IMG/VR virus record: IMGVR_UViG_3300037067_003400
Coordinates: 32,001 to 96,000 of that record
Length of the DNA: 64,000 nucleotides
Source: a virus
Taxonomy: Duplodnaviria > Caudoviricetes
Strand: one strand, 5' to 3'
In this document: in pieces, positions 9,035 to 62,814 of the stretch
How positions within the stretch are numbered: position 1 is the stretch's first letter
Layout: the number at the start of each line of letters is the position of its first letter
Position numbers and translations under genes: made by a program
The notes under the pieces: model-generated
The model's database searches: none
The model's input: the letters and a program-made list of their open reading frames with translations, nothing else
What the model was told of the DNA's origin: nothing

Positions 9035-9688
9035 ATGAAAATCTATACAGATGGTTCTTATGACGTTGCCCGAGAAATGGGTTCGTGGGCATATGTAACT
9101 GAAGCTGGAGAATCTGCCTCCGGCATTATAGCTTATCCAGAGGCTCGTAACATTGATGGAGAGATTTTAGCTGTGATAATGGCTATAGACAAATATCCAG
9201 AAGCTCAAATCTTCACAGACTTACAGGGTATACCAAGATGGGTTTCCAAAAAGTGGAAAGCCAATACACTTGTATCACAGAACTTGCAGAATTTTATGAC
9301 TGGAAGAAAGAATGTTATCACGTGGGTTAAAGGACACAGTGGAAACCCAACCAACGAGCAAGTGCACAAGTTAGCATCTTCGATTCTAAAGTCAGAAGAA
9401 GCTACCAAGATATACAACCGTAAAAAGTGCAGGGCTCAATACTCCCCAGAGTTTAATACTCTACCTGATACTTTTAAAAAGACTATAATAGGTGATGTAG
9501 TCCAAGAGGCTATAGCAAATAATATAGTCTTCAACTTCGAGAGACCAGATTATGGTATCACTGAATTTCTTGCTGATTATGGCTTAGAGTTTATGAGTGG
9601 CAAAACCAATTTCATAGGCACTAAAGATATGTCAGTAGAGACACAGCTTATTATAGTCAAGAAGCTTGTTAATGCTCTTGTCTTGTGA
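9035..9688 (+). CDS. rnhA: ribonuclease HI with C-terminal extension
   Basis: IYTDGS, GEILA, IFTD, WVKGHSGNPTNE motifs. Confidence 0.85.
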   Translation: MKIYTDGSYDVAREMGSWAYVTEAGESASGIIAYPEARNIDGEILAVIMAIDKYPEAQIFTDLQGIPRWVSKKWKANTLVSQNLQNFMTGRKNVITWVKGHSGNPTNEQVHKLASSILKSEEATKIYNRKKCRAQYSPEFNTLPDTFKKTIIGDVVQEAIANNIVFNFERPDYGITEFLADYGLEFMSGKTNFIGTKDMSVETQLIIVKKLVNALVL

Positions 9689-9775
9689 TTTATGCCCTGC
9701 GACCTTTTCTGAGTGGATCCCTATGCTCCAATATGCTTAGTGGATCCCTCTTAACTTTTTAACTCTTGCTATGGT

Positions 9776-11311
9776 ATGGATATTCTTTCCATAGCTATTC
9801 CTGTTATCAGTAAGCTACAACAATACTTAGTATGCTTACTTAAGGGGAGTAATTCCCAGAAAGAGAGAGTTAAGTTGGACACTGAATCTAAATCTTCAGT
9901 AGTTCGAACAGGCTTTGAGGTTACAAGCCAGTTGCAAACAATGGGCGGAGTCTCATCATCCGAATTTGTTTGGAATAGAAAAAACCTAAGGAATACTATC
10001 TTTGACCCTTGTTTTATGGGCAAAGATGTATACATTGACCTTCTCAAAGTGTCGAATGGCACTGGTTTCCCAATGTATGAGGATGGTATTCCTCTTCAGC
10101 TAATACTTATTCCTTGGGATTTACGCAAGGACTTAAAGAAGAACTATAATGGAACCTATCTGCTTAGTGGGTTGTTAGCATCTGCTAATGAGCTTGCAGG
10201 TGAGGTTTCAAAGGCTAAAGTTTCTGGTGATATAAAGAGAGTTCAATCTTTAGTAACCAGAACTTGTTGCGCTTATGCTGAAGAACTATTGAGAACTCTC
10301 AATATAGATTTAGCACGACCAAGAAATAAATTATCTGGGAACCTTGTTGCCGTCCCAGATATAAGACACGATATCTTCTCGAGTTTAACTGCCTTTAAGA
10401 GAGGCTTGATTTCAGACTTGAGACCTGGTGAGATAGGTGTCTCTACTAAGGTTCTTAACAAAATTAATAACGGGAGAGACGTTCCAAAACGTATTGTTAA
10501 GAATGGTGACTATTTCATCACGAGTCGTTGGCCGTGCACTGATGTGCGTCCAATGAAGATTGTTGAACGGAATGAACATTCCTTTGTTGCTTACGTGTCA
10601 GCTGATTGGTTTACAACTACAGAGCACGAAGCTCCTATTCAACAGATGAAACTCTTCGAAGGAGACAACGACGGAGACACATTATTCTTCAACTTTGTTA
10701 CACATGTAGCAGAGGTGATGGATATATATGATAAGTTTATGGACGACGTAACCGTAGTTCCATTTACTCCAATGTCTTTAACTTATTTAGACCACGAGGT
10801 CTTAGATTGTAACGAGTTGCAGATAGCAACTGATAAGGCAGACCAGAAGAACTGGATTATGCCTTTAAGTGCAGCTATGTATGCTGGTTATGCTTTTATG
10901 GAGAACCGTGAACAACAAGGTCTCCCAGTCAATATGACTAAGCTTGAGTGGTGTGAAACTATGACTCAGGCTTTAGAGTTGTGCTTTGATAAAAAGCATA
11001 ATAATAATTCTAACCCTCGTCCTTTATATGGTATGCTCCAAGCAAAAGAGGGTTATACGTGGAATGCTGTTGTTAAGTTGCTGGAAGTCCAGAATCTTAA
11101 CATTGACATCCTTTACAAAATGCACGAAATGCTTGACGGTCAATCCCTAAGAGAAGCCGCAAGTGCTAATCTTCCGTTTAAAGTCGTGCACCAAATGCGT
11201 GGTGCTGATACTAAGAAACGCTTACAAACCATAGAAGCTTTGCTTCAGCAACCTGAACTTTGTAAGTGGTTTGTTTCTAACCTAGTTCCATCTTTACAAG
11301 GAGAGTGTTAA
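9776..11311 (+). CDS. divergent RNA polymerase beta'-like catalytic subunit (two-barrel fold)
   Basis: FEGDNDGDTL (DxDGD at 10664-10678), DYFITSRWP (cf. VLLNRAP), RNKLSGNLVAVPD..LRPGEIGV (cf. RVDYSGRSVIVVGP.L..HQCGL). Start codon uncertain. Confidence 0.8.
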   Translation: MDILSIAIPVISKLQQYLVCLLKGSNSQKERVKLDTESKSSVVRTGFEVTSQLQTMGGVSSSEFVWNRKNLRNTIFDPCFMGKDVYIDLLKVSNGTGFPMYEDGIPLQLILIPWDLRKDLKKNYNGTYLLSGLLASANELAGEVSKAKVSGDIKRVQSLVTRTCCAYAEELLRTLNIDLARPRNKLSGNLVAVPDIRHDIFSSLTAFKRGLISDLRPGEIGVSTKVLNKINNGRDVPKRIVKNGDYFITSRWPCTDVRPMKIVERNEHSFVAYVSADWFTTTEHEAPIQQMKLFEGDNDGDTLFFNFVTHVAEVMDIYDKFMDDVTVVPFTPMSLTYLDHEVLDCNELQIATDKADQKNWIMPLSAAMYAGYAFMENREQQGLPVNMTKLEWCETMTQALELCFDKKHNNNSNPRPLYGMLQAKEGYTWNAVVKLLEVQNLNIDILYKMHEMLDGQSLREAASANLPFKVVHQMRGADTKKRLQTIEALLQQPELCKWFVSNLVPSLQGEC

Positions 11312-11312
11312 T

Positions 11313-13271
11313 ATGGAATTTGCATATGAAATCGAGAAAGACCTATTTGAAATATATAAAATAGGTTTAGAGAAGTTCCTTGTTCTAAACTATAAGGGCA
11401 AGGAATATAAGACCAGAATTCCTATCACAAGTGATGGTAGGATAATACTGCCTTCAGGTTCTCAGCCTGTGTTTAGAAAGACTGTCGAAATCACATATGA
11501 TGATTTCAAGCCAGAAGTCAAGATGTATCAGAACATTGAGCAGTGGATTATAAAAGACTGCCAAGACCCTAAACTTCAGGGTTATATAGTTAGTATGCTG
11601 AAGCAGTCAGAGGGTGATGTCTCTGCTTGTGAAAACTTAGTTCGTGGTTTGCTTCTTAAATCATTGAATAAGTTTTATAAGTCTACTACGGTTTGGGAAG
11701 ACCCTGGTTCAGATTTTGAGTGTTTTGCTCAGAAGCTAACCTATGTCTTAGCAGATGGTGTGCCTCCTACTCGTAGAGGCGGATTCTTCCCTGATTCAGT
11801 AACTAAACACAGATTGACATTTCTCCGAGCTTTAGAAAATCAGGGAGTGTCTTCCTTGTGTGCAACTCAGCCCGGTGACCCGGGCACAACAGCTGATTGG
11901 GTTGATAAAGCAACTGGACTTCCTGTTTATATGGGAATTCAGCCGATGGCTTTAGAATGTCATCCTATGCGTTATGCTATTCAGAGAGGCTTAACGCATT
12001 TTGTTAAGTTACAAAACTCTGAAGCTCCATTTGTTAATGTAGAAGAGACATTAAAGTATCCGTCTCTTCAGACTGTGAATGCTAATGTCATTTGCGGAGA
12101 CTTAGGTCTTAACGATTCGGTGATTATTTCCCAGGACTTAGCAGATAGACTTACTGGTCTTGAGGATGAGGTTCACACCCATACTCTTGACGGTTTGATA
12201 ACTTGCAGAGGTGAAAGTGAGCCTTTAACTTTCCCAAGCGTCGTGAAGAGAAGTATGCTTCAGAAGACTGAAACTGCTTATGATGTCTTTGTGAGATATC
12301 GCAGACTATGGCTCTCCAAGTATGGGGATGAGAGCAAGGTTAGCCAAGTTCGTAAGAAACATCTTCTTAGTGTGATGAAAACGTGCCCGCTATTAAGTGT
12401 GGTATGTCCTGATGTTCAGGAACGTATCCACTTGAATATGTATAACTGTGAGTATGGAGAAAATAGCTCCGAGAGTTTTACTAAGTTTCGCAGATGGTTA
12501 CAACTTAATGACAAATATGCGACAGATATGTTGCCTTTTAACCATCTTAATCAGCCTGTGTCAAGAAGATTTCCCGGTGTGGGAATTGATAGACTTATAG
12601 CTGAATCTAATTCCGGTAGAAGTGTTCTTTATAAAGAATTTCACGGAATTGACAAGAATAAATGCCGAGTCGGTGCTAAGTTACAGACCGACGCAGACTT
12701 AGCAAAAGGTGTTTGTAACATCTTTGAGAATGAGCGTATGCCATTTATCAAGAGAGCTGATGGCACTATGGTTAGAGCAGATTTAGTCGTTGATATGGCT
12801 AAATCGACCAAGAAACACGGTTCTCTTCGTTTTGCTCATCTAACTATGGCTTTATATGCTATAGGACAAGCTAAAGGCGGTATAACCGTAAAGGTTTCTG
12901 AGCCGTGGAGTGATGAGAAGATTGTTGCAACTGGTAAGAGATTGGGTATCTATGATGATGAGTCTCTTACTTGTGAGATGTGGAATGATACACAGACTCA
13001 CGTTCTTGGGAAATTTCCTGCCGGCGTTATCCGTATAGGTAGACATCGTCAAGACCCTGATATTCAGGGCGGTGTCGTTGGTGAGTTAGGCAAGAAAGAG
13101 TTAACTGCAAGAAACGTTCTTAAAGAATCTGGAGTTAGAGATGGTTTTATTGATACTAACGTTCAGATGGCTTTTGGTTTCATAGAGTCAGCTAAAGAAC
13201 TCAGGCGTGTAACTCCCAGTGCAAAGAAGAAAGTTAATGCACTTGAGAGAGTTTTAGTGTTCAATAACTAA
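11313..13271 (+). CDS. divergent RNA polymerase beta-like subunit
   Basis: IPITSDGRIIL, NDSVIISQDL, VGAKLQTDADLAKGVC..ERMPF..DGT..ADLVVD (cf. GDK..GRHGNKGV..EDMPY..DGTPVDIV), SGVRDGFID (cf. GGQRFGEME). Confidence 0.8.
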   Translation: MEFAYEIEKDLFEIYKIGLEKFLVLNYKGKEYKTRIPITSDGRIILPSGSQPVFRKTVEITYDDFKPEVKMYQNIEQWIIKDCQDPKLQGYIVSMLKQSEGDVSACENLVRGLLLKSLNKFYKSTTVWEDPGSDFECFAQKLTYVLADGVPPTRRGGFFPDSVTKHRLTFLRALENQGVSSLCATQPGDPGTTADWVDKATGLPVYMGIQPMALECHPMRYAIQRGLTHFVKLQNSEAPFVNVEETLKYPSLQTVNANVICGDLGLNDSVIISQDLADRLTGLEDEVHTHTLDGLITCRGESEPLTFPSVVKRSMLQKTETAYDVFVRYRRLWLSKYGDESKVSQVRKKHLLSVMKTCPLLSVVCPDVQERIHLNMYNCEYGENSSESFTKFRRWLQLNDKYATDMLPFNHLNQPVSRRFPGVGIDRLIAESNSGRSVLYKEFHGIDKNKCRVGAKLQTDADLAKGVCNIFENERMPFIKRADGTMVRADLVVDMAKSTKKHGSLRFAHLTMALYAIGQAKGGITVKVSEPWSDEKIVATGKRLGIYDDESLTCEMWNDTQTHVLGKFPAGVIRIGRHRQDPDIQGGVVGELGKKELTARNVLKESGVRDGFIDTNVQMAFGFIESAKELRRVTPSAKKKVNALERVLVFNN

Positions 13272-13340
13272 GGTACGGCCTTCGGCCTACCTACTACGAC
13301 TTACTTTACCACACTTTATATCTCTCGAGTTGATGGGATT

Positions 13341-13377
13341 GGGAGCCTGCCCTTAGCGGGGTGGGCTCCCCCTTTTT
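13341..13377 (+). terminator. intrinsic terminator downstream of the RNAP genes
   Basis: GGGAGCCTGCCC/GGGTGGGCTCCC hairpin plus TTTTT. Confidence 0.7.
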
Positions 13378-13415
13378 GGCTTCTGAAAGCCATATCACAA
13401 TTCCCGTCAGAAAAG

Positions 13416-53402: not shown

Positions 53403-54998
53403 ATGAAATACACAGATCATTTTGGATTTAAAAAGACCCCACAGTCTGAGCCTATACCATTTTCTAATATGGTAGCTAACTCAGCTGGGGGTTTTTCTTT
53501 CGCCATAGATAAGTGGGTATCTCTTCGGAGATTTCTTATTCTTGGTGCGGAAGGTGGAACGTATTACATTTCAGAGAAGAAGCTTACAGTTGATAATGCT
53601 AAGTCAGCTTTAGCTTGCTTAACTGAAGATGGTAAGAAAACTTTAGATATGGTAAAGGAAGTAAGTGTAGGTGGTAAGGCTCCAAAGAATACTCCTGCTA
53701 TATTTGTTTTAGCTATGGCTATGTCACTACCTGGTGATCAGTTCATAGCTATTAGACAATACGCCGGAGAAATATTCCCAGAAGTTTGTAGAATTCCTAC
53801 ACATGTATTTACTTTTGCTGAATATATGGAAGCTTTCAGAGGTTGGGGTAGGGTAGCTAAGAGATCAGTTGCTAACTGGTATATTAACAAGACTCCCAAT
53901 GATTTACTTTATCATGCTACTAAGTATAAACAAAGAGACGGTTGGAGTAATAGAGACCTTCTTAGATTATCACATCCTAAGTTTACTGGAGAAGCTAATG
54001 AAATTGCTAAGTATATAGTCTCTGGGAAGATTCCTTCCGACGACTGTTCCCTTAGTGAGCATATCCAGATTTTAGAAGAACTTGAGAACTATGACATATC
54101 TAAAGTAGCTGATAGCATAGTTAGGTTTAACCTTCCAAGAGAAGTAATACCTACTAAGTATTTGAAGGAGAAAGTTATTTGGGATGCCTTACTTTATAAT
54201 GGTATGCCAATGACTGCTATGCTTAGGAATCTTGGTAACATGAGTTCTTATGGTGTCTTTGATACAGAGGCTAATGTTACACGTGTATTAGAAGCATTCT
54301 CAAATAGAGAGAGCTTAAAGAAAGCTCGTATACATCCTATATCTATACTTGCTGCCCTAATGACGTATAGCGAAGGTTCTGGAATAAGAGGTAGTAATAC
54401 CTGGGTGCCTAATGAAGATATAGTTGAAGTATTGAATGAAGCTTTCTATAAAAGCTTTGATTTTGTAGAATCTTCTAATAAAAATATTATGATAGGTATG
54501 GATATTTCTGCATCTATGACTTGGAGCGATGTGTCTGGTATTCCAAACCTTACCCCAAGAGTAGCAGCTGCAGCAATGGCTATGGTTACTGCAAAGACTG
54601 AGCCTAATACTTACGTTAGAGCTTTTAGTGATGAGCTTATCCCTATTACTATGCTTCCTAATGATAAGATTGAGTATATGACTGCAAGGATAGAGAAAAT
54701 GCGTGCTGGTAGTACTGATTGCTCTTTACCAATGTTAACAGCCAAAGTTGAGAAGTTAGATGTAGATGCTTTTGTTGTGTACACAGACTCAGAAACTTGG
54801 TGCGGTAGAACTCACCCAGTACAGGCATTGGAACAGTATGAGAAGTTCATAGGTCATCCTGCTAAGCTTATAGTAGTTGGTATGGTAGCTAATGAATTTA
54901 GTATAGCAGACTCAAGTAAGGCTAACATGTTAGACGTAGTAGGCTTTGATACCTCTGCTCCAAGTGTTATCTCGGAGTTTATAGCAGGAAAGATATAA
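53403..54998 (+). CDS. rsr: Ro60/Rsr TROVE-vWA RNA-binding protein
   Basis: NSAGGFSF, LRRFLILGAEGGTYY, KYKQRDGWSNRDLLRLSHP, MPMTAMLRNL, MIDAS DISASM, GSTDCSLPM, YTDSETW, LDVVGFD. Confidence 0.95.
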   Translation: MKYTDHFGFKKTPQSEPIPFSNMVANSAGGFSFAIDKWVSLRRFLILGAEGGTYYISEKKLTVDNAKSALACLTEDGKKTLDMVKEVSVGGKAPKNTPAIFVLAMAMSLPGDQFIAIRQYAGEIFPEVCRIPTHVFTFAEYMEAFRGWGRVAKRSVANWYINKTPNDLLYHATKYKQRDGWSNRDLLRLSHPKFTGEANEIAKYIVSGKIPSDDCSLSEHIQILEELENYDISKVADSIVRFNLPREVIPTKYLKEKVIWDALLYNGMPMTAMLRNLGNMSSYGVFDTEANVTRVLEAFSNRESLKKARIHPISILAALMTYSEGSGIRGSNTWVPNEDIVEVLNEAFYKSFDFVESSNKNIMIGMDISASMTWSDVSGIPNLTPRVAAAAMAMVTAKTEPNTYVRAFSDELIPITMLPNDKIEYMTARIEKMRAGSTDCSLPMLTAKVEKLDVDAFVVYTDSETWCGRTHPVQALEQYEKFIGHPAKLIVVGMVANEFSIADSSKANMLDVVGFDTSAPSVISEFIAGKI

Positions 54999-55638: not shown

Positions 55639-58600
55639 ATGAGTAATTCATACACCTTTGATGAGGTGTTTGAGGCAACCAAGAATTATTTTGGTGGTGA
55701 TGATTTAGCAGCAGCTACCTTCTTTAAGTATGTTCTTTGTGATGATGAAGATGTATACTATGAGAAGACACCTGAAGATGCTATTAATAGATATGCAAAA
55801 GAGATTCATAGAATAGATTGTAAATATCCAAAGCCTATAGGCTATGGTGACATGATTTATTTGTTAGACCATTATAAAAGAGTTATACTGGGTGGCTCCC
55901 CTATGGCAGGGATAGGTAACGACTTTTCAAGGATGTCGTTATCGAATTGTGTAGTGGCTCCTTCTCCAGAAGATAATATCTCTTCTATATTTGATGTAGC
56001 TAAGATGTTAGCAATCTTCTTTAGTAGAAGAATGGGTGCAGGTTTAAACTTATCTACATTACGCCCGGCAGGTGATGCTGTTAGTAATGCAGCTAAGACT
56101 ACTACTGGAGCCTGGAGCTTTGCAAGTCTATATAGTTTTGTCTGTAGATTGATAGGACAAAATAATAGACGTGGTGCCCTTATGTTAACTATGTTAGTCA
56201 GCCACCCAGATATAGAAAAGTTTATTACAATGAAGCGTAACCTTACTGATGTAACTGGTGCCAATATATCAGTTCTTATAACTGATGACTTTATGACAGC
56301 AGTAGAAGAGGATGGTGATTGGGATTTAGTATTCAATGGTAAGGTGCGTAGAACAGTAAAGGCTGTTGATATATGGAACTTGATTATAGAGAATGCTACT
56401 GCTGCTGCTGAGCCTGGTGTATTGTTCTGGGATACATATAAAAAATACAATCCTTTAAATGAATATCCTGGCTTTAAGATGATTTCTACCAATCCTTGTC
56501 AGCCTGGGTTTGCATACTTACAAGGAGCAGAGAATCTTATTACTATGTATGATGTGAAAGTTGGGGATGAAATATGGAGTCCTATCCCTGGTACTAAAAA
56601 TGCTGGGCAGTTTTCAAAAGTGGTAAGGAAGGTTTCTTCTGGTATAAAGGATGTCTATAGGTATAGAACTACCTTTGGGGAATTTATAGGTACTGAAGAC
56701 CATAAGGTTTATGATGGTGGTAGTAAAGTAAAAGCTAAAGATGCTATGTGTTTAGACAGAGCTGTCTTTGGTGGAACAGTGTTTAATAATCATCAGTTGT
56801 TGAATCCTGAGTATATAATGTATGGATTATTGTTAGGAGATGGCTCTGTTCATAAGGCTTCTAACAACAAAGTCATACTATATATAGGTGATGAAGACCA
56901 GGACTACTTCAATGATTTAGATATAAAACACTTAATAGTTGGTAAGACAGGCATAGGTGAAAAAGCGTATGCTGTTGATTCTAATATCTCTCCAGAGGTA
57001 TTAGTTAGAACTTATGACAGAAGTATACCTAAAGAATTTATGGTTGCTGATAAAGTTAAGGTTCGTAGTTTACTAAGAGGTATCTACTCAGCTAATGGTT
57101 CTATTATTAATGGTAAAGGGAAACGTATATCTCTTAAGTCAGCAAGTTTAGATATGATAACTGATGTTCAGTTATTGTTATCTTCTCTTGGTATTAGTTC
57201 TTATTATACTACTAATAAAGAATCTACAGTTCTGTTTCCTAATGGTGAGTACGTATGTAAACAGTCTTATGATTTAAATATAACTACTGATATGAATAAG
57301 TTCTTTGCTTTGATAGGATTTATCCAACACTATAAGATGTGTGCATTAGTAGATGTTATAGAAAATAAAAAGAAAGCTTCTAAGATTAGAGGAACGCAAG
57401 AGCGTATAGTTTCTATAGAGTATCTTGGTAAGCATGAGGTATTTGATATAACAGTAGACTCTGATTATCATACCTATCTTACGGGTGGAAGCGTTGTAGG
57501 AAACTGTGGTGAGCTCGGGCTTTCTGGAAATGCAGGCTGTATGCTCTCGTCTATTAACCTGAGAGGGTTTGTATTGAATCCTTATACTCCAGAAGCTACA
57601 TTTGATGCTGAGGGTTTTGAGAGTGCAGTACGAAAAACCATTAGGATGATGGATGATATGATAGACCTTGAGCTTGAGGCTTTGGATAAAGTAATAGCTA
57701 AAGCTGATACTCAAGATGTAAAGGATATCTTTAAGTTAGTTCAAGATGTATTTGTAAAGGGTAGACGTATAGGCTTAGGTACTACTGCTTTAGCTGATTG
57801 TCTTATTGCTCTGGGAATCTCTTACGGCTCTGAAGATTCAAAGGATACAATAGATTATATCTATTCGATGTTAGAGTACTTTGCTTATGATGAGAGTGTT
57901 AACTTAGCTATAGAGCGTGGACCATTCCCTATCTTTGATTGGAATACTGAAAAGGATAACCTATTTATAGTTGGGCTACCTTTAGAACTACGAGAAAAGA
58001 TTAAGAAGTATGGTAGAAGACATGGTGCATTGTTAACTAATGCTCCTGTTGGTAGTGGAAGTATCTTAGGGCAGTGTTCCTCTGGGATAGAACCTGTGTT
58101 TGATTTATACTACACACGTAGGAAGAAACTCACAGGAGATATAACATCAGAGAGAGTAGATTATACTGATGCCAATGGAGATAAGTGGCAGTTCTTTACA
58201 GTGGTGCATCCTGAAGTTATGTGTTACATGCGTAACGAGGGTATAGCTACTGCTGGATTAGATAGAATAGCTACAGAGTCTCTACTCATAGATGATTTAC
58301 CTGCTGATTTTATAGAGGCGGTAAAAGAACTCCCAGATTATTTTGTTACTTCTTCTGGTATAAAGTGGGAAGATAGAGTAGAGATACAAGCTATCATAAC
58401 TTCACACTTAGACCACAATTGTAGCAGTACTGTCAATTTACCTGAGGGAACTACTCCTGAAGTAGTTAGTGGTATATATAAGACAGCCTGGAAGTCTGGA
58501 TGTAAAGGTATTACCGTTTATGTACAAGGTAGTAGAGATGGTGTGTTGGTTTCAGCAAGTCCTTGTGCCAAGACTTTAGATGAATGGTATGATAGACCTG

Positions 58601-59133
58601 AAGCTTTATTCTGTGAGGTTCATTATATAGAAGCTACTTTTGATAAGGTAAGAAAGCCTTATGCAGTTATAGTATCCTTTAAAGATGATATACCTTTTGA
58701 AATATTTGGTGGTGAATACTCAGCGGAAGAGGTGTCTTCCCAGTTTCCTCCGTATGTAAATGATAAAGTAATGAGTGGATTGATTACTAAGAAAGAGCTG
58801 GCTGCTGGAGCTAAGTATACATTAACCATAGAGGGTAATGGAGTTATACAGAACTTAGGTGGAGAGTTCCATTACGGACAGACAGCTACTATCAATAGGG
58901 TTATGTCTCTTTGCTTGCGTAGTAGACCAGATAACCTTATTCATTTGATAAAGCAGATTTCTAAAGACAGAAACTATGCTGGATATATGAAAGCTGTAGG
59001 TAGAGTACTAAAGAAATATATCCCAGATGGTACAAGTTCAAGATTAACCTGTCCTCAGTGTGGGCAGAAGACCTTACGATATGAGGGTGGTTGCACAGTG
59101 TGTCAGTCGTGTGGATATAGTGGATGTAGCTAA
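55639..59133 (+). CDS. nrdJ: class II (adenosylcobalamin-dependent) ribonucleotide reductase containing an intein
   Basis: LSNC, RRGALM, HPDIEKFI, ANISV, EPGVLF, STNP|CGE, APVGS, SSGIEP, SSTVNLP, GCKGITVY, C-terminal Cys clusters. Confidence 0.92.
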   Translation: MSNSYTFDEVFEATKNYFGGDDLAAATFFKYVLCDDEDVYYEKTPEDAINRYAKEIHRIDCKYPKPIGYGDMIYLLDHYKRVILGGSPMAGIGNDFSRMSLSNCVVAPSPEDNISSIFDVAKMLAIFFSRRMGAGLNLSTLRPAGDAVSNAAKTTTGAWSFASLYSFVCRLIGQNNRRGALMLTMLVSHPDIEKFITMKRNLTDVTGANISVLITDDFMTAVEEDGDWDLVFNGKVRRTVKAVDIWNLIIENATAAAEPGVLFWDTYKKYNPLNEYPGFKMISTNPCQPGFAYLQGAENLITMYDVKVGDEIWSPIPGTKNAGQFSKVVRKVSSGIKDVYRYRTTFGEFIGTEDHKVYDGGSKVKAKDAMCLDRAVFGGTVFNNHQLLNPEYIMYGLLLGDGSVHKASNNKVILYIGDEDQDYFNDLDIKHLIVGKTGIGEKAYAVDSNISPEVLVRTYDRSIPKEFMVADKVKVRSLLRGIYSANGSIINGKGKRISLKSASLDMITDVQLLLSSLGISSYYTTNKESTVLFPNGEYVCKQSYDLNITTDMNKFFALIGFIQHYKMCALVDVIENKKKASKIRGTQERIVSIEYLGKHEVFDITVDSDYHTYLTGGSVVGNCGELGLSGNAGCMLSSINLRGFVLNPYTPEATFDAEGFESAVRKTIRMMDDMIDLELEALDKVIAKADTQDVKDIFKLVQDVFVKGRRIGLGTTALADCLIALGISYGSEDSKDTIDYIYSMLEYFAYDESVNLAIERGPFPIFDWNTEKDNLFIVGLPLELREKIKKYGRRHGALLTNAPVGSGSILGQCSSGIEPVFDLYYTRRKKLTGDITSERVDYTDANGDKWQFFTVVHPEVMCYMRNEGIATAGLDRIATESLLIDDLPADFIEAVKELPDYFVTSSGIKWEDRVEIQAIITSHLDHNCSSTVNLPEGTTPEVVSGIYKTAWKSGCKGITVYVQGSRDGVLVSASPCAKTLDEWYDRPEALFCEVHYIEATFDKVRKPYAVIVSFKDDIPFEIFGGEYSAEEVSSQFPPYVNDKVMSGLITKKELAAGAKYTLTIEGNGVIQNLGGEFHYGQTATINRVMSLCLRSRPDNLIHLIKQISKDRNYAGYMKAVGRVLKKYIPDGTSSRLTCPQCGQKTLRYEGGCTVCQSCGYSGCS
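56497..57504 (+). mobile_element. intein (336 aa) with LAGLIDADG endonuclease, inserted at the RNR NP|CGE motif
   Basis: Starts CQPG, block B GTEDHKV, YGLLLGDG and LRGIYSANG motifs, ends VFDITV...VVGN|C. Confidence 0.9.
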
Positions 59134-59998: not shown

Positions 59999-60716
59999 GG
60001 AAAAGAATCAGTTAGCAATAGATACTATAATGGGTAAGTCTACAGACATACGCTTCACAGATAGGTTTCGTCATATAGATAGACCAGGGAGTGGTGAGCT
60101 TAGCATATACGCTTACGAGTTTTATCCAACCTTAGGAGTGTACTTTGCTTGGGTGTATGTTAATCATAGTTCAATATGCTGTGACGAAAGGATATTAGTA
60201 GGACCATTACCTAAGACACTTGAGTTATCATATCCAGTCTTTAGAAGTTTTGTTCCAGTAAGGCCTGGACATGGTATAGCTGGTATAGAAGTTAACGAAA
60301 CTACATTTGGAAAGTGGTATATTAAAGAGACTACTTCTATTATTAATATTAGGTATTGGATAGATGATTACGGCGGTGTACAGTTTAATTATAATACCAG
60401 AGCTACTCCATACCTTAATATAGGATGGGATACTGTTACAGCAGACGATATTCCTACCATATTTAAAAAAATGGAGAGAGATTTTAGTAAGTCTCAATCT
60501 TTCTTAAGTAATTTCTTGCATATGTTTCCTATGAAAGATGTGCTTACTGTAGCATCCCCCTTTAATGAGTTGCCTAATAGGTGTACCAGCTGTAAGCATT
60601 GTGCTGTCTGTAAAGACTGGGGACAATATAAGGATAGCTCTTATATGAGAGAGCTTAATAAGATGTGTGCCTGTTACTGTGTGATGTTTGAGGATAGCCA
60701 TGAAGATATTTTCTAA
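59982..60716 (+). CDS. hypothetical protein with C-terminal Cys cluster
   Basis: YEFYPT.G..F.WV, GPLPKT, CTSCKHCAVCKDW; GGAGG RBS. Confidence 0.7.
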   Translation: MFGVSKEKNQLAIDTIMGKSTDIRFTDRFRHIDRPGSGELSIYAYEFYPTLGVYFAWVYVNHSSICCDERILVGPLPKTLELSYPVFRSFVPVRPGHGIAGIEVNETTFGKWYIKETTSIINIRYWIDDYGGVQFNYNTRATPYLNIGWDTVTADDIPTIFKKMERDFSKSQSFLSNFLHMFPMKDVLTVASPFNELPNRCTSCKHCAVCKDWGQYKDSSYMRELNKMCACYCVMFEDSHEDIF

Positions 60717-62814
60717 GAAGAAGCCTCCTTATGTAAAGCCTAAAGCTATGCTGGTTGTAGGTGGAGCTGGATTTATAGGTTCTCATTTTGTAGAAGCGGT
60801 AGTTAATAATACTTCTGATGTAGATACTTCTGGAGTAGAGGTTGCTGTAGTAGATGCTTTAACTTATGCTGGGAATAAAGATTATCTGAGCTCCGTAGAA
60901 GATAAGATAAAGCTTTGGGTAGAAAATATATCTAATGATGATTTCTTTAATTCTATGCGTACTATATTTCCTATGTATGATACTATTGTTAACTTTGCTG
61001 CTGAGAGTCATGTGGATAGATCTTTTGAAAACTACAGAACCTTTATAGATACTAATATAAAAGGAGAGGCTGCTATTTTAAAAGCTATATATAAGGCTAA
61101 GAATCTTAGACACTTATATGTATCTTGTTATGATACTGCTACTCGTGCTCTAACTAAAGACGGGTTGAAATATTATGACGAGTTAAAAATTGGGGATGTT
61201 GTATTTACATTAAATGCTTCTGATAATTTGGAAGAACAGCCTATAGAAAACATTATAATTCAAGACTATTCAGGAGATATGATTAGTCTATCTAATAGAC
61301 GTGTAGATATATTAGTTACACCTAATCATAGGATGTATGATAGAAACCTAAATGTTTTTGAAGCATGTGATTTGTTAAGAGGTTCTAAGTATAAATCTTA
61401 TGAATTACCATATCCTGTAGTAGGTATTGGTTGTAAAGATAGTATAATAATAGATGGTAAAGAAGTAGATTTGTGTGATTTGTTTTATTTATCTGGTATT
61501 TTTATAGGGGATGGTTTTTTAGCTTATCAGGAAAAAGAACTTGTAAATAAAAGTGGTCTAAGTAGACAAGGTTTTTTGAGCAGAAGAAATTCTAAAGGGC
61601 AGTTTGTTTCAGGTAGAACGGGAGATGTTTCTACTACTACCTCTAAGGGTTGGCGCATTTTTATTGACGTACCAGAAAATGATAAATGTAGAAAACGTTT
61701 GGAAGATACTTTAAGTAGATTGGATATAAATTATTCTATACAAAAGGGTAAGTCTGGAGAGCATATATACTTCACTTCCGAAGTGTGGTCTGATTATTTT
61801 AAACAATTTGGTGAGTATGCACAAAACAAAACTATACCAGAATGGATGCTACAATATGATCCACAGTATCTTATGTGTTTGTTTAAAGGACTTATGGATT
61901 CAGACGGCCATGTCATAGATCATAGTTGCTTTATGTATTCTACTGTTTCTATTAAACTTACAGAAAAGATATGCGAGCTTGGTTTAAAAGTAGGGTACTA
62001 TCCGAAGGTATATGATAGATATTGTGAATCATATATAGATGGAAGGAAAATTTCTGGTAGTAGCAAACAAATATTATTTGGTATGCGCCCTAGAACTATT
62101 AGGTACGATAAAATATGTACCAAAGAATATAATGGTAAGGTTTGGTGCATTAAGGTAAAGAATAAAAACTTCTTAACTGAAAGAAATGGTTGTTTTTCTT
62201 TTTCTGGTAATACTGATGAAATTTATGGGACTCAATCTTATGTCCCATCAGTAGAAACTACTCCAGCTGATCCTACTAATATTTATTCTATAACTAAGGT
62301 AGCTGCTGAGCAGTTAGTTGCCTACTACCATAAGAATTATGGAGTTAATACAATTGTAACAAGAGGCTCTAACACTTATGGAACCAGACAATATCCAGAG
62401 AAAGTTATTCCCTGGTTTATAAATAACTTACTAAAAGGAATTAAGTGCCCTGTATATGGTAAGGGTGAAGCCAGAAGATACTATATGCATGTGGATGATC
62501 ACGTTAATGGTATACTACATGCTCTTTACTATGGTGAAGCTGGTGAAGCTTACAATGTAGGAGCTACTAATAGCGAGTATAGTACTGTAGAACTTGCTAC
62601 TATATTAATTAGTGTCATAAAGAAGATTAGTATAGAGGAAGCTAAAGACTCTCTAAGTAACTATATAGAATTCATAGAAGATAGAGTTGCTAATGACAGG
62701 CGGTACATGATGAATTCCCAGAAACTAACAGAACTATCAGGATGGTATCCTAAGAGAACTTTAGTTGATGGTATAGAAGAAGTTATTGATTACTATAGAG
62801 AGAGGATTATTTAA
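60700..62814 (+). CDS. rmlB: dTDP-glucose 4,6-dehydratase containing an intein
   Basis: GGAGFIGS, DALTYAG, NFAAESHVDRS, VS|TDEIYG, YSITK, RGSNTYG..QYPEKVIP. Confidence 0.9.
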   Translation: MKIFSKKKPPYVKPKAMLVVGGAGFIGSHFVEAVVNNTSDVDTSGVEVAVVDALTYAGNKDYLSSVEDKIKLWVENISNDDFFNSMRTIFPMYDTIVNFAAESHVDRSFENYRTFIDTNIKGEAAILKAIYKAKNLRHLYVSCYDTATRALTKDGLKYYDELKIGDVVFTLNASDNLEEQPIENIIIQDYSGDMISLSNRRVDILVTPNHRMYDRNLNVFEACDLLRGSKYKSYELPYPVVGIGCKDSIIIDGKEVDLCDLFYLSGIFIGDGFLAYQEKELVNKSGLSRQGFLSRRNSKGQFVSGRTGDVSTTTSKGWRIFIDVPENDKCRKRLEDTLSRLDINYSIQKGKSGEHIYFTSEVWSDYFKQFGEYAQNKTIPEWMLQYDPQYLMCLFKGLMDSDGHVIDHSCFMYSTVSIKLTEKICELGLKVGYYPKVYDRYCESYIDGRKISGSSKQILFGMRPRTIRYDKICTKEYNGKVWCIKVKNKNFLTERNGCFSFSGNTDEIYGTQSYVPSVETTPADPTNIYSITKVAAEQLVAYYHKNYGVNTIVTRGSNTYGTRQYPEKVIPWFINNLLKGIKCPVYGKGEARRYYMHVDDHVNGILHALYYGEAGEAYNVGATNSEYSTVELATILISVIKKISIEEAKDSLSNYIEFIEDRVANDRRYMMNSQKLTELSGWYPKRTLVDGIEEVIDYYRERII
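61126..62211 (+). mobile_element. intein (362 aa) with LAGLIDADG endonuclease in rmlB
   Basis: Starts CYDTAT, block B VTPNHRM, SGIFIGDG and FKGLMDSDG motifs, ends VWCIKV...FSGN|T. Confidence 0.9.

Follow-up and report, generated by a model that had tools for sequence, protein, structure and literature searches.

RNA polymerases (RNAPs) of the two-barrel type are the universal transcription enzymes, with a core of roughly 400 kDa. Much less can reportedly suffice in the case of YonO, an enzyme of ~100 kDa that is said to belong to the RNA-dependent RNA polymerase (RdRP)-like branch. Among phages, the enzymes of phiKZ and AR9 work without alpha and omega subunits (PMC7598289), and recent reviews divide jumbo phages into those that encode an RNAP and those that encode a sigma factor (PMC7824862; PMC13282480). 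Here we describe a pair of adjacent genes in a 64,000-nucleotide stretch of viral DNA (the window), which represents bases 32001-96000 of the 210,951-bp IMG/VR virus record IMGVR_UViG_3300037067_003400, estimated to be 98% complete. The two gene products, named A and B, are as follows:

Window 9776..11311, + strand: subunit A, beta'/Rpb1-like, 511 amino acids (aa) by the longest open reading frame (ORF); assigned by fold, double-psi beta-barrel (DPBB) and motifs
Window 11313..13271, + strand: subunit B, beta/Rpb2-like, 652 aa; assigned by fold, key residues and ESM Atlas neighbours carrying PF00562

Judged from structural models, the pair belongs to a genuine family of miniaturised two-barrel polymerases of the cellular type, both conserved and very rare, and is most probably a phage DNA-dependent RNAP. 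We assign a probability of about 0.72 to the more specific reading that A and B form a heterodimeric cellular-type two-barrel polymerase, most likely dedicated to the DNA-dependent transcription of one class of phage genes. An earlier reading made from the letters alone (the sequence-only reading) had already proposed a two-barrel RNAP from the motifs of these 511- and 652-aa ORFs; both ORFs were recovered with exact coordinates, and the motif residues are conserved in homologues. It had also given the pair less than half the size of its bacterial counterpart, and indeed A and B sum to 1163 aa compared to 2749 aa for Escherichia coli beta plus beta' (annotated coordinates), that is ~42% of the bacterial catalytic pair.

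Two predicted barrels and a predicted shared active site

AlphaFold2 models of A and B were built from family alignments and compared with known and predicted structures by Foldseek (PDB), VIA-align, the ESM Atlas and BFVD, as well as by a wide search of 48,161 chains that is independent of Foldseek. The model of A reaches a predicted local distance difference test score (pLDDT) of 86.2 and a predicted template modelling score (pTM) of 0.81. On Foldseek its best 50 PDB matches are all largest RNAP subunits, with 301 matches at an expectation value (E) < 0.001. VIA-align gives a Z score of 12.7 and aligns 375-410 of the 511 residues (model 18-511) across Rpb1 25-1469, and largest subunits are again the best matches of the wide search (Z 9.6-12.6). 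Furthermore, residues 184-318 superpose on proteins made of a DPBB only, namely the designed DPBB 7dww (Z 9.3, root mean square deviation 1.9 Å over 83 residues) and the CDC48 N domain (Z 9.8). Other two-barrel enzymes match A as well, with QDE-1 at Z 9.2, P23-45 gp96 at Z 8.9 and AR9 beta'-N at Z 8.7; plant RDR2 is also found among the fold matches, and ESM Atlas proteins carrying Rpb1_2 and Rpb1_5 domains give template modelling scores of 0.57-0.65 over 369-429 residues.

The model of B displays a pLDDT of 70.9 and a pTM of 0.61, with low-confidence stretches at 289-321, 410-444 and 584-634. Its best 50 Foldseek matches are all second-largest RNAP subunits (best E 2.6e-10), and VIA-align gives Z 24.2 over ~400-430 residues spread across Rpb2 59-1103, N-terminal lobes included. 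In the wide search nine RNAP subunit representatives are observed at Z 18-24 and the next fold only at Z 5.9; the rows after the RNAP subunits are DPBB-only proteins (Z 5.5-5.9) that map to residues 253-580. Residues ~198-594 match the beta C-terminal subunits of AR9 and phiKZ (7s00_C, Z 19.6; 7ogp_C, Z 18.2), and crAss gp66 is matched at Z 4.7. Among the ESM Atlas neighbours of B, found by language model plus structure, all those with a Pfam family carry PF00562. The sole sequence-level link of B to a solved structure is a weak profile match to chain 7s00_C of the non-virion RNAP (nvRNAP) from AR9 in the stretch LNDAVIISxSAA (E 0.031), and the PDB profile search with A gave no match.

On these models, a DPBB is predicted in A (~184-318) and another in B (~253-580, split by an insertion), and the modelled correspondence of A to Rpb1/beta' and of B to Rpb2/beta runs over the full length, beyond the barrels. 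The sequence-only reading had made its case hang on a DPBB fold being predicted; since the fold is predicted in both A and B, the interpretation as a two-barrel polymerase stands.

The catalytic residues were followed in alignments of 25 A sequences, 17-41% identical to P0001, and 14 B sequences. A carries the motifs SRWP (R251, P253) and EGDNDGD (D297, D299, D301), while those of B, collinear with beta, are LND (D268), GAK...AKG (K456, K465), GRHRQ and SGVRDG. Invariant or near-invariant positions in the 25 A sequences are R183, R251, P253, G296, D297, D299, G300, D301, K358, E401, D405 and K407, and R55, T185, G188, R220, D268, G454, K456, D462, K465, H502, H578 and Q580 are conserved in the 14 B sequences. 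Given this degree of conservation of the motif residues in both sets of homologues, the motifs are far beyond chance. The two lysines of B are spaced by nine residues in split forms of the family and by eight in fused forms. Eight residues have been listed by Ruprich-Robert and Thuriaux as invariant in every two-barrel RNAP (PMC2919709). All eight are present in A and B and nearly invariant across the family, with the following equivalences:

Yeast Rpb1 R446: A R251
Yeast Rpb1 P448: A P253
Yeast Rpb1 D479: A D297
Yeast Rpb1 D481: A D299
Yeast Rpb1 D483: A D301
Yeast Rpb2 D837: B D268
Yeast Rpb2 K979: B K456
Yeast Rpb2 K987: B K465

The complex was predicted from A 44-511 and B 121-652, each with its own family alignment, in three runs accompanied by three controls. 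The interface score ipSAE is 0.84 (runs 0.83-0.85) with 450-470 contacts, compared to 0.00 for the best control; the runs share at least 75% of their contacts, with a partner pLDDT of 64 or more. When the score was calibrated, the mark was reached by 58 of 80 solved complexes and by 2 of 110 mismatched pairs, a yardstick that is only rough for user-supplied alignments. The confident interface comprises A 250, 253-259 and 297-300 and B 262-269, 452-456 and 465-467, which are the catalytic elements of both barrels. The two barrels are thus predicted to face each other around one active site, as in the heterodimer with DxDGD opposite the lysines that the sequence-only reading had anticipated, although part of the score may reflect likeness to solved RNAPs, or the model's memory of them. 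In such an enzyme the active site would lie at the interface of the two DPBBs, A providing the Mg-binding DxDGD loop and the R-x-P element and B providing D268, K456 and K465.

Outside its barrel (184-318), A is predicted to contain a helical hairpin at 132-180 in the N-terminal region and, on the other side, a helix of 34 residues (347-380) followed by a C-terminal domain that is also helical. The alignment with Sulfolobus RpoA' pairs A model 19-376 with chain 13-828, and that with P23-45 gp96 covers A model 184-438; these ranges fit helix 347-380 as the bridge helix. The modelled helix is therefore the probable bridge helix, an element conserved in all two-barrel RNAPs analysed (PMC10770324).

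A rare family in one, two or three polypeptides

Neither A nor B has a match in Pfam or PHROGs, even at permissive thresholds, and the same searches with ten relatives returned nothing useful; the sole RNAP-named row, phrog_2986 (one fused relative, E 0.048), was rejected as chance-level. Moreover, A, B and a fused relative showed no tblastn match in 50,697 GenBank phage records, and no A/B relative was found when 185,579 species genomes were scanned. Among 5.8 billion proteins, searched by a word index, A and B had two homologues each, whereas the exhaustive HMMER search of 1.84 billion representative proteins with the A profile gave only 25 at E <= 0.001. In IMG/VR only two further contigs carry an A-B pair, of 213 and 217 kb. 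In the claim of a distinct minimal lineage, distinctness is borne out by the empty Pfam, PHROG and GenBank phage searches and by the 25 clusters in 1.84 billion, whereas its two-subunit and minimal character is a possibility only. No description of the family was found in the literature; the 23 two-barrel family alignments of PMC10770324 were not among the comparisons.

Nine of the 25 relatives are fusions of 930-1045 aa, whose N-terminal half matches A and C-terminal half matches B (hhalign probability 99.8 for P0018; domain tables). Joint action of A and B is independently indicated by these nine fusions, which occur naturally. A-then-B adjacency is also conserved in five other loci. In a metagenomic relative (L006, 1549-3555) the B homologue is split into 426- and 235-aa ORFs at the barrel-insertion site, which may represent a three-piece enzyme unless a frameshift is responsible. 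Hence, the family exists as one, two or three polypeptides and the order is invariably A then B. This beta'-like then beta-like order, in split and fused forms alike, agrees with the earlier observation that the genes are reversed relative to rpoBC.

Profile searches with the family alignments in SPbeta, Acinetobacter phage ME3 and Microcystis phage MaMV-DC gave no match. The best viral fold matches of A in BFVD are uncharacterised proteins of phages ME3 and MaMV-DC and, given the lack of a profile match there, these belong to other families. As a separate observation, MaMV-DC ORF82L (record 66652-77334), possibly the matched BFVD entry, encodes a 3560-aa hypothetical protein with a DFDGD codon string; this cultured phage may hold a giant two-barrel polymerase that has escaped annotation.

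Search for other polymerase parts in the genome

The sequence-only reading had called for a search of the rest of the genome for further split subunits, and no further catalytic subunit, alpha or omega was found. Indeed, profile searches show no second copy of A or B in the genome, and no other ORF carries a convincing DxDGD-type motif. Subunits of the alpha type (PF01193) and omega (PF01192) were not found in the 98%-complete genome, with controls matched in 14 of 14 genomes. The T7-type RNAP family PF00940 was also unmatched in the genome, but its control matched nowhere either, which makes this result uninformative. The large ORFs of the genome are structural, intein-bearing, polymerases or unknowns. 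The large unassigned ones (1948, 967, 906, 771 and 745 aa) were considered as polymerases and rejected, having neither a Pfam or PHROG polymerase signal nor a DxDGD-type motif; the 745-aa ORF displays DIDVD only, which is unconvincing.

Genes and signals around the pair

The features that surround A and B, together with a more distant sigma factor gene, are the following:

Window 9035..9688, + strand: RNase H gene, 217 aa, with the domain at residues 2-116 (Pfam PF00075, E 2e-14) and an unassigned C-terminal part
Window 9712-9722 and 9739-9749, + strand: two exact AGTGGATCCCT copies, 27 nt apart, in the 87-nt spacer before gene A
Window 13341..13378, + strand: intrinsic-terminator-like hairpin with a 13-bp stem (9 G-C pairs) and a T run, 70 nt past the B stop
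Window 46862-47581, + strand: sigma-70 family factor, 239 aa, with regions 2, 3 and 4 (PF04542 E 4e-11, PF04539, PF08281, PF04545)

When one mismatch is allowed, AGTGGATCCCT has three matches in the window (the two exact copies and one with a single mismatch) versus 0.87 expected, and the pair could serve as an operator or promoter. Homologues lack a counterpart of the first ~33-43 residues of A, whose model is of low confidence. An in-frame TTG, at 9875 and with a purine-rich stretch before it, is a candidate for the actual start and would give ~478 aa. A single base separates the A stop codon from the B ATG, GGAGAG stands 8 nt upstream of this ATG, and the two genes are translationally coupled. 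The 13-bp stem and T run match the strong terminator noted earlier after the 652-aa gene. A short GGCC-TTC-GGCC hairpin is also seen right after the B stop, ahead of the main terminator (window 13275-13304).

Among the compared loci, conservation near A/B is seen for RNase H alone, in five loci that include split and fused forms of the polymerase. In the window and in L031, the latter with a fused polymerase, it immediately precedes the polymerase. In L002 it stands two genes upstream, in L008 it is 3 kb upstream and in L003 it is 2.4 kb downstream. The adjacent RNase H pointed out by the sequence-only reading hence belongs to a conserved neighbourhood. This gene arrangement supports a functional link between RNase H and the polymerase, for which removal of hybrids or R-loops would be the simplest reading and replication priming the main alternative.

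The source record is an uncultivated jumbo phage of ~211 kb with no close cultured relative. In the window nearly all genes are on the + strand and the G+C content is 34-41%. The genome holds two separate family-A DNA polymerase genes, at 121836-123602 and 190330-192414, and the family-A DNA polymerase of the phage is at most ~27% identical to anything in GenBank phages. A 340-aa Toprim/DUF3854-like ORF, a primase candidate by a weak match, adjoins a UvrD helicase. From the sigma-70 factor it follows that the host RNAP core carries out part of the phage programme. Its presence alongside a phage-encoded two-barrel RNAP in one genome is unusual; the phage combines two-barrel RNAP genes and a sigma factor of its own, unlike the either/or pattern of the reviews. 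At least ten mostly intergenic genome sites, in both strand blocks, carry the promoter-like motif GTTTAAA-N~17-TGGGTATAATAT(A/T)TATAGG, which resembles a sigma-70 motif, has an extended -10 element and is also conserved in its downstream part; they include window 20472, 51659 and 63986 and at least seven more in the genome.

Further observations concern other genes of the phage. The ribonucleotide reductase large subunit and a GDP-mannose dehydratase/epimerase-like gene (window 55639-59133 and 60688-62814) are each interrupted by LAGLIDADG-type intein/homing-endonuclease domains, and more intein-bearing ORFs are found elsewhere in the 211-kb genome. A Ro60/TROVE protein with a von Willebrand factor A domain is encoded at window 53403-54998.

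Proposed function and competing explanations

In the mechanism that we propose, the operon, composed of unknown genes, a NADAR gene, RNase H, A, B and the terminator, would first be transcribed by the host polymerase. The A/B enzyme would then transcribe one temporal gene class of the ~211-kb phage, while the phage sigma factor would redirect the host core to another class. The neighbouring RNase H would probably clear RNA-DNA hybrids left behind by an enzyme apparently without a flap and other RNA-separating parts.

Several results weigh against A and B being a cellular-type transcription enzyme. Matches to the profiles PF00623 (RNA_pol_Rpb1_2) and PF00562 (RNA_pol_Rpb2_6), to which the sequence-only reading had looked for confirmation, are absent from the genome even at E 10, with controls matched in 14 of 14 genomes. 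Moreover, hhalign of the A family against E. coli beta' aligns the DxDGD stretch only, at a probability of 14%. In B an Asn is found where cellular-type beta nearly always has a Glu, an acidic residue, before the catalytic Asp, and a missing Glu at this place is a trait tied to YonO and RdRPs (PMC2919709). The trigger loop is not identifiable in the A model; of the two elements that had escaped detection by eye, the bridge helix is now probably present. In addition, an insertion of ~150 residues, mostly helical and partly of low confidence, breaks the B barrel at 291-437, where cellular enzymes carry the sandwich-barrel hybrid motif (SBHM) flap, a domain that sits inside the beta DPBB (PMC7824862), and the nine fused relatives have no insertion at this site. 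On the models, the SBHM flap seems to be replaced by helices in B and absent in the fused relatives. Finally, k-mer enrichment upstream of genes recovers the sigma-70-like motif only, with no promoter class assignable to the A/B enzyme.

It is an even bet whether A and B form only the catalytic core of a larger enzyme, for which more phage subunits or a sigma factor would be needed in assembly or promoter recognition. The non-virion enzymes of phiKZ and AR9 need a fifth, specificity subunit (PMC13282480). The genome of our phage holds a sigma-70 factor and many unassigned large ORFs, and a docking site of the clamp-helix kind could be provided by the modelled A hairpin at 132-180. However, no gene besides RNase H is conserved beside A/B in the compared loci, no alpha, omega or further beta/beta'-like piece was found in the genome, and the contigs with 930-aa fused relatives show no RNAP family among the called neighbours. 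Furthermore, the flap, on which sigma region 4 normally docks, seems to be missing. The same neighbourhood is relevant to a role of the enzyme mainly in replication, in which its products would serve as RNA primers or its transcription would open origins, the RNA being cleared afterwards by RNase H. RNase H as the only conserved neighbour, in five loci with split and fused forms, and the position of the A/B genes among early or replication-type genes would fit this, but we consider it improbable given that the phage has its Toprim/DUF3854-like primase candidate (weak match) and two family-A DNA polymerases, and that the characterised phage two-barrel enzymes YonO, P23-45 gp64, gp96 and AR9 nvRNAP transcribe genes (PMC5467207, PMC10770324, PMC9209446).

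The nature of the template is another matter. An RNA-templated or dual-template polymerase like QDE-1, which would make double-stranded or antisense RNA and not mRNA, is suggested by the lack in B of the Glu before the catalytic Asp, as in the YonO/RdRP group, and by QDE-1 and plant RDR2 being among the fold matches of A (Z 9.2). Such an enzyme is nevertheless highly improbable: B resembles cellular beta/Rpb2 at Z 18-24 over ~400 residues, N-terminal lobes included, compared to only Z 4.7 for crAss gp66, QDE-1 is not among the best 50 matches listed for B, and QDE-1 and YonO have their domains in the opposite order. Least credible of all are the readings of A and B as relics without catalytic activity or as a PolD-type DNA polymerase with two barrels. 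The extreme sequence divergence could point in this direction, and two-barrel DNA polymerases do exist (PMC7708050), but all catalytic residues are strongly conserved across 25 clusters with identities of only 20-40%, no PolD chain is found among the matches listed and the phage has family-A DNA polymerases of its own. A DNA-dependent two-barrel RNAP formed by A and B is the reading that we prefer.

We also propose, tentatively and at slightly less than even odds, that A/B represents an undescribed third lineage of cellular-type phage polymerases, the smallest known of that type. It would be made of one to three polypeptides in a permuted beta'-then-beta order, would lack alpha, omega and the flap, would have RNase H as an obligate partner and, in jumbo phages, would be combined with redirection of the host polymerase by a phage sigma factor. 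If the 930-aa fused forms are active alone, they would come closest yet to a single-chain cellular-type RNAP. The family touches the open questions of how much of the two-barrel core is needed and what its ancestor looked like: by keeping the beta/beta' architecture beyond the barrels in 1163 residues, or ~930 in the fusions, it could serve as a minimal model of the cellular branch, and possibly as a compact orthogonal polymerase. The phage breaks the reported split between jumbo phages with their own RNAP and those with sigma factors. A conserved partnership of RNAP and RNase H, open to direct tests, is indicated as well.

Comparison with known polymerases

Compared to the cellular and nucleocytoplasmic large DNA virus pairs of beta'/Rpb1 and beta/Rpb2, A and B share the two DPBBs, the eight active-site residues and the collinear GRHRQ and SGxRxG motifs. 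They differ in having only 42% of the bacterial size, no detectable profile similarity, no alpha or omega found and a gene order of beta' then beta, the reverse of rpoBC; in addition B, unlike cellular beta, has its flap apparently replaced by helices, no Glu before the catalytic Asp and its two lysines spaced by nine residues in split forms (eight in fused ones).

In the case of single-chain two-barrel RNAPs (YonO, QDE-1, crAss gp66, P23-45 gp64 and gp96), the fused A-B relatives are likewise single chains, of ~930-1045 aa. YonO of SPbeta resembles A/B by its small size, its DNDGD metal loop and the absence of a Glu before the beta-type Asp. Its domain order is however the opposite, its 839 residues carrying the beta-like motif first, at ~193-217, and DNDGD later, at ~535, and hhalign of YonO against the A and B profiles gave E 0.26 and 0.6, which is not significant. 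Moreover, B is much closer to cellular beta (Z 24) than to crAss gp66 (Z 4.7). On the models, B, and A to a lesser degree, belongs structurally with the cellular-type branch (clade 1, PMC10770324) and not with the YonO/QDE-1/crAss branch.

Like A/B, the non-virion RNAPs of phiKZ and AR9 are phage-encoded, of cellular type and without alpha or omega. Each of their beta and beta' comes in pieces, for a total of 4-5 subunits, and there are virion and non-virion sets that Pfam recognises, whereas A/B is a single set of two small subunits, or one chain in relatives, in a phage that also has a sigma factor. By structural comparison of the models, the phiKZ and AR9 enzymes are the nearest phage relatives of the A/B polymerase.

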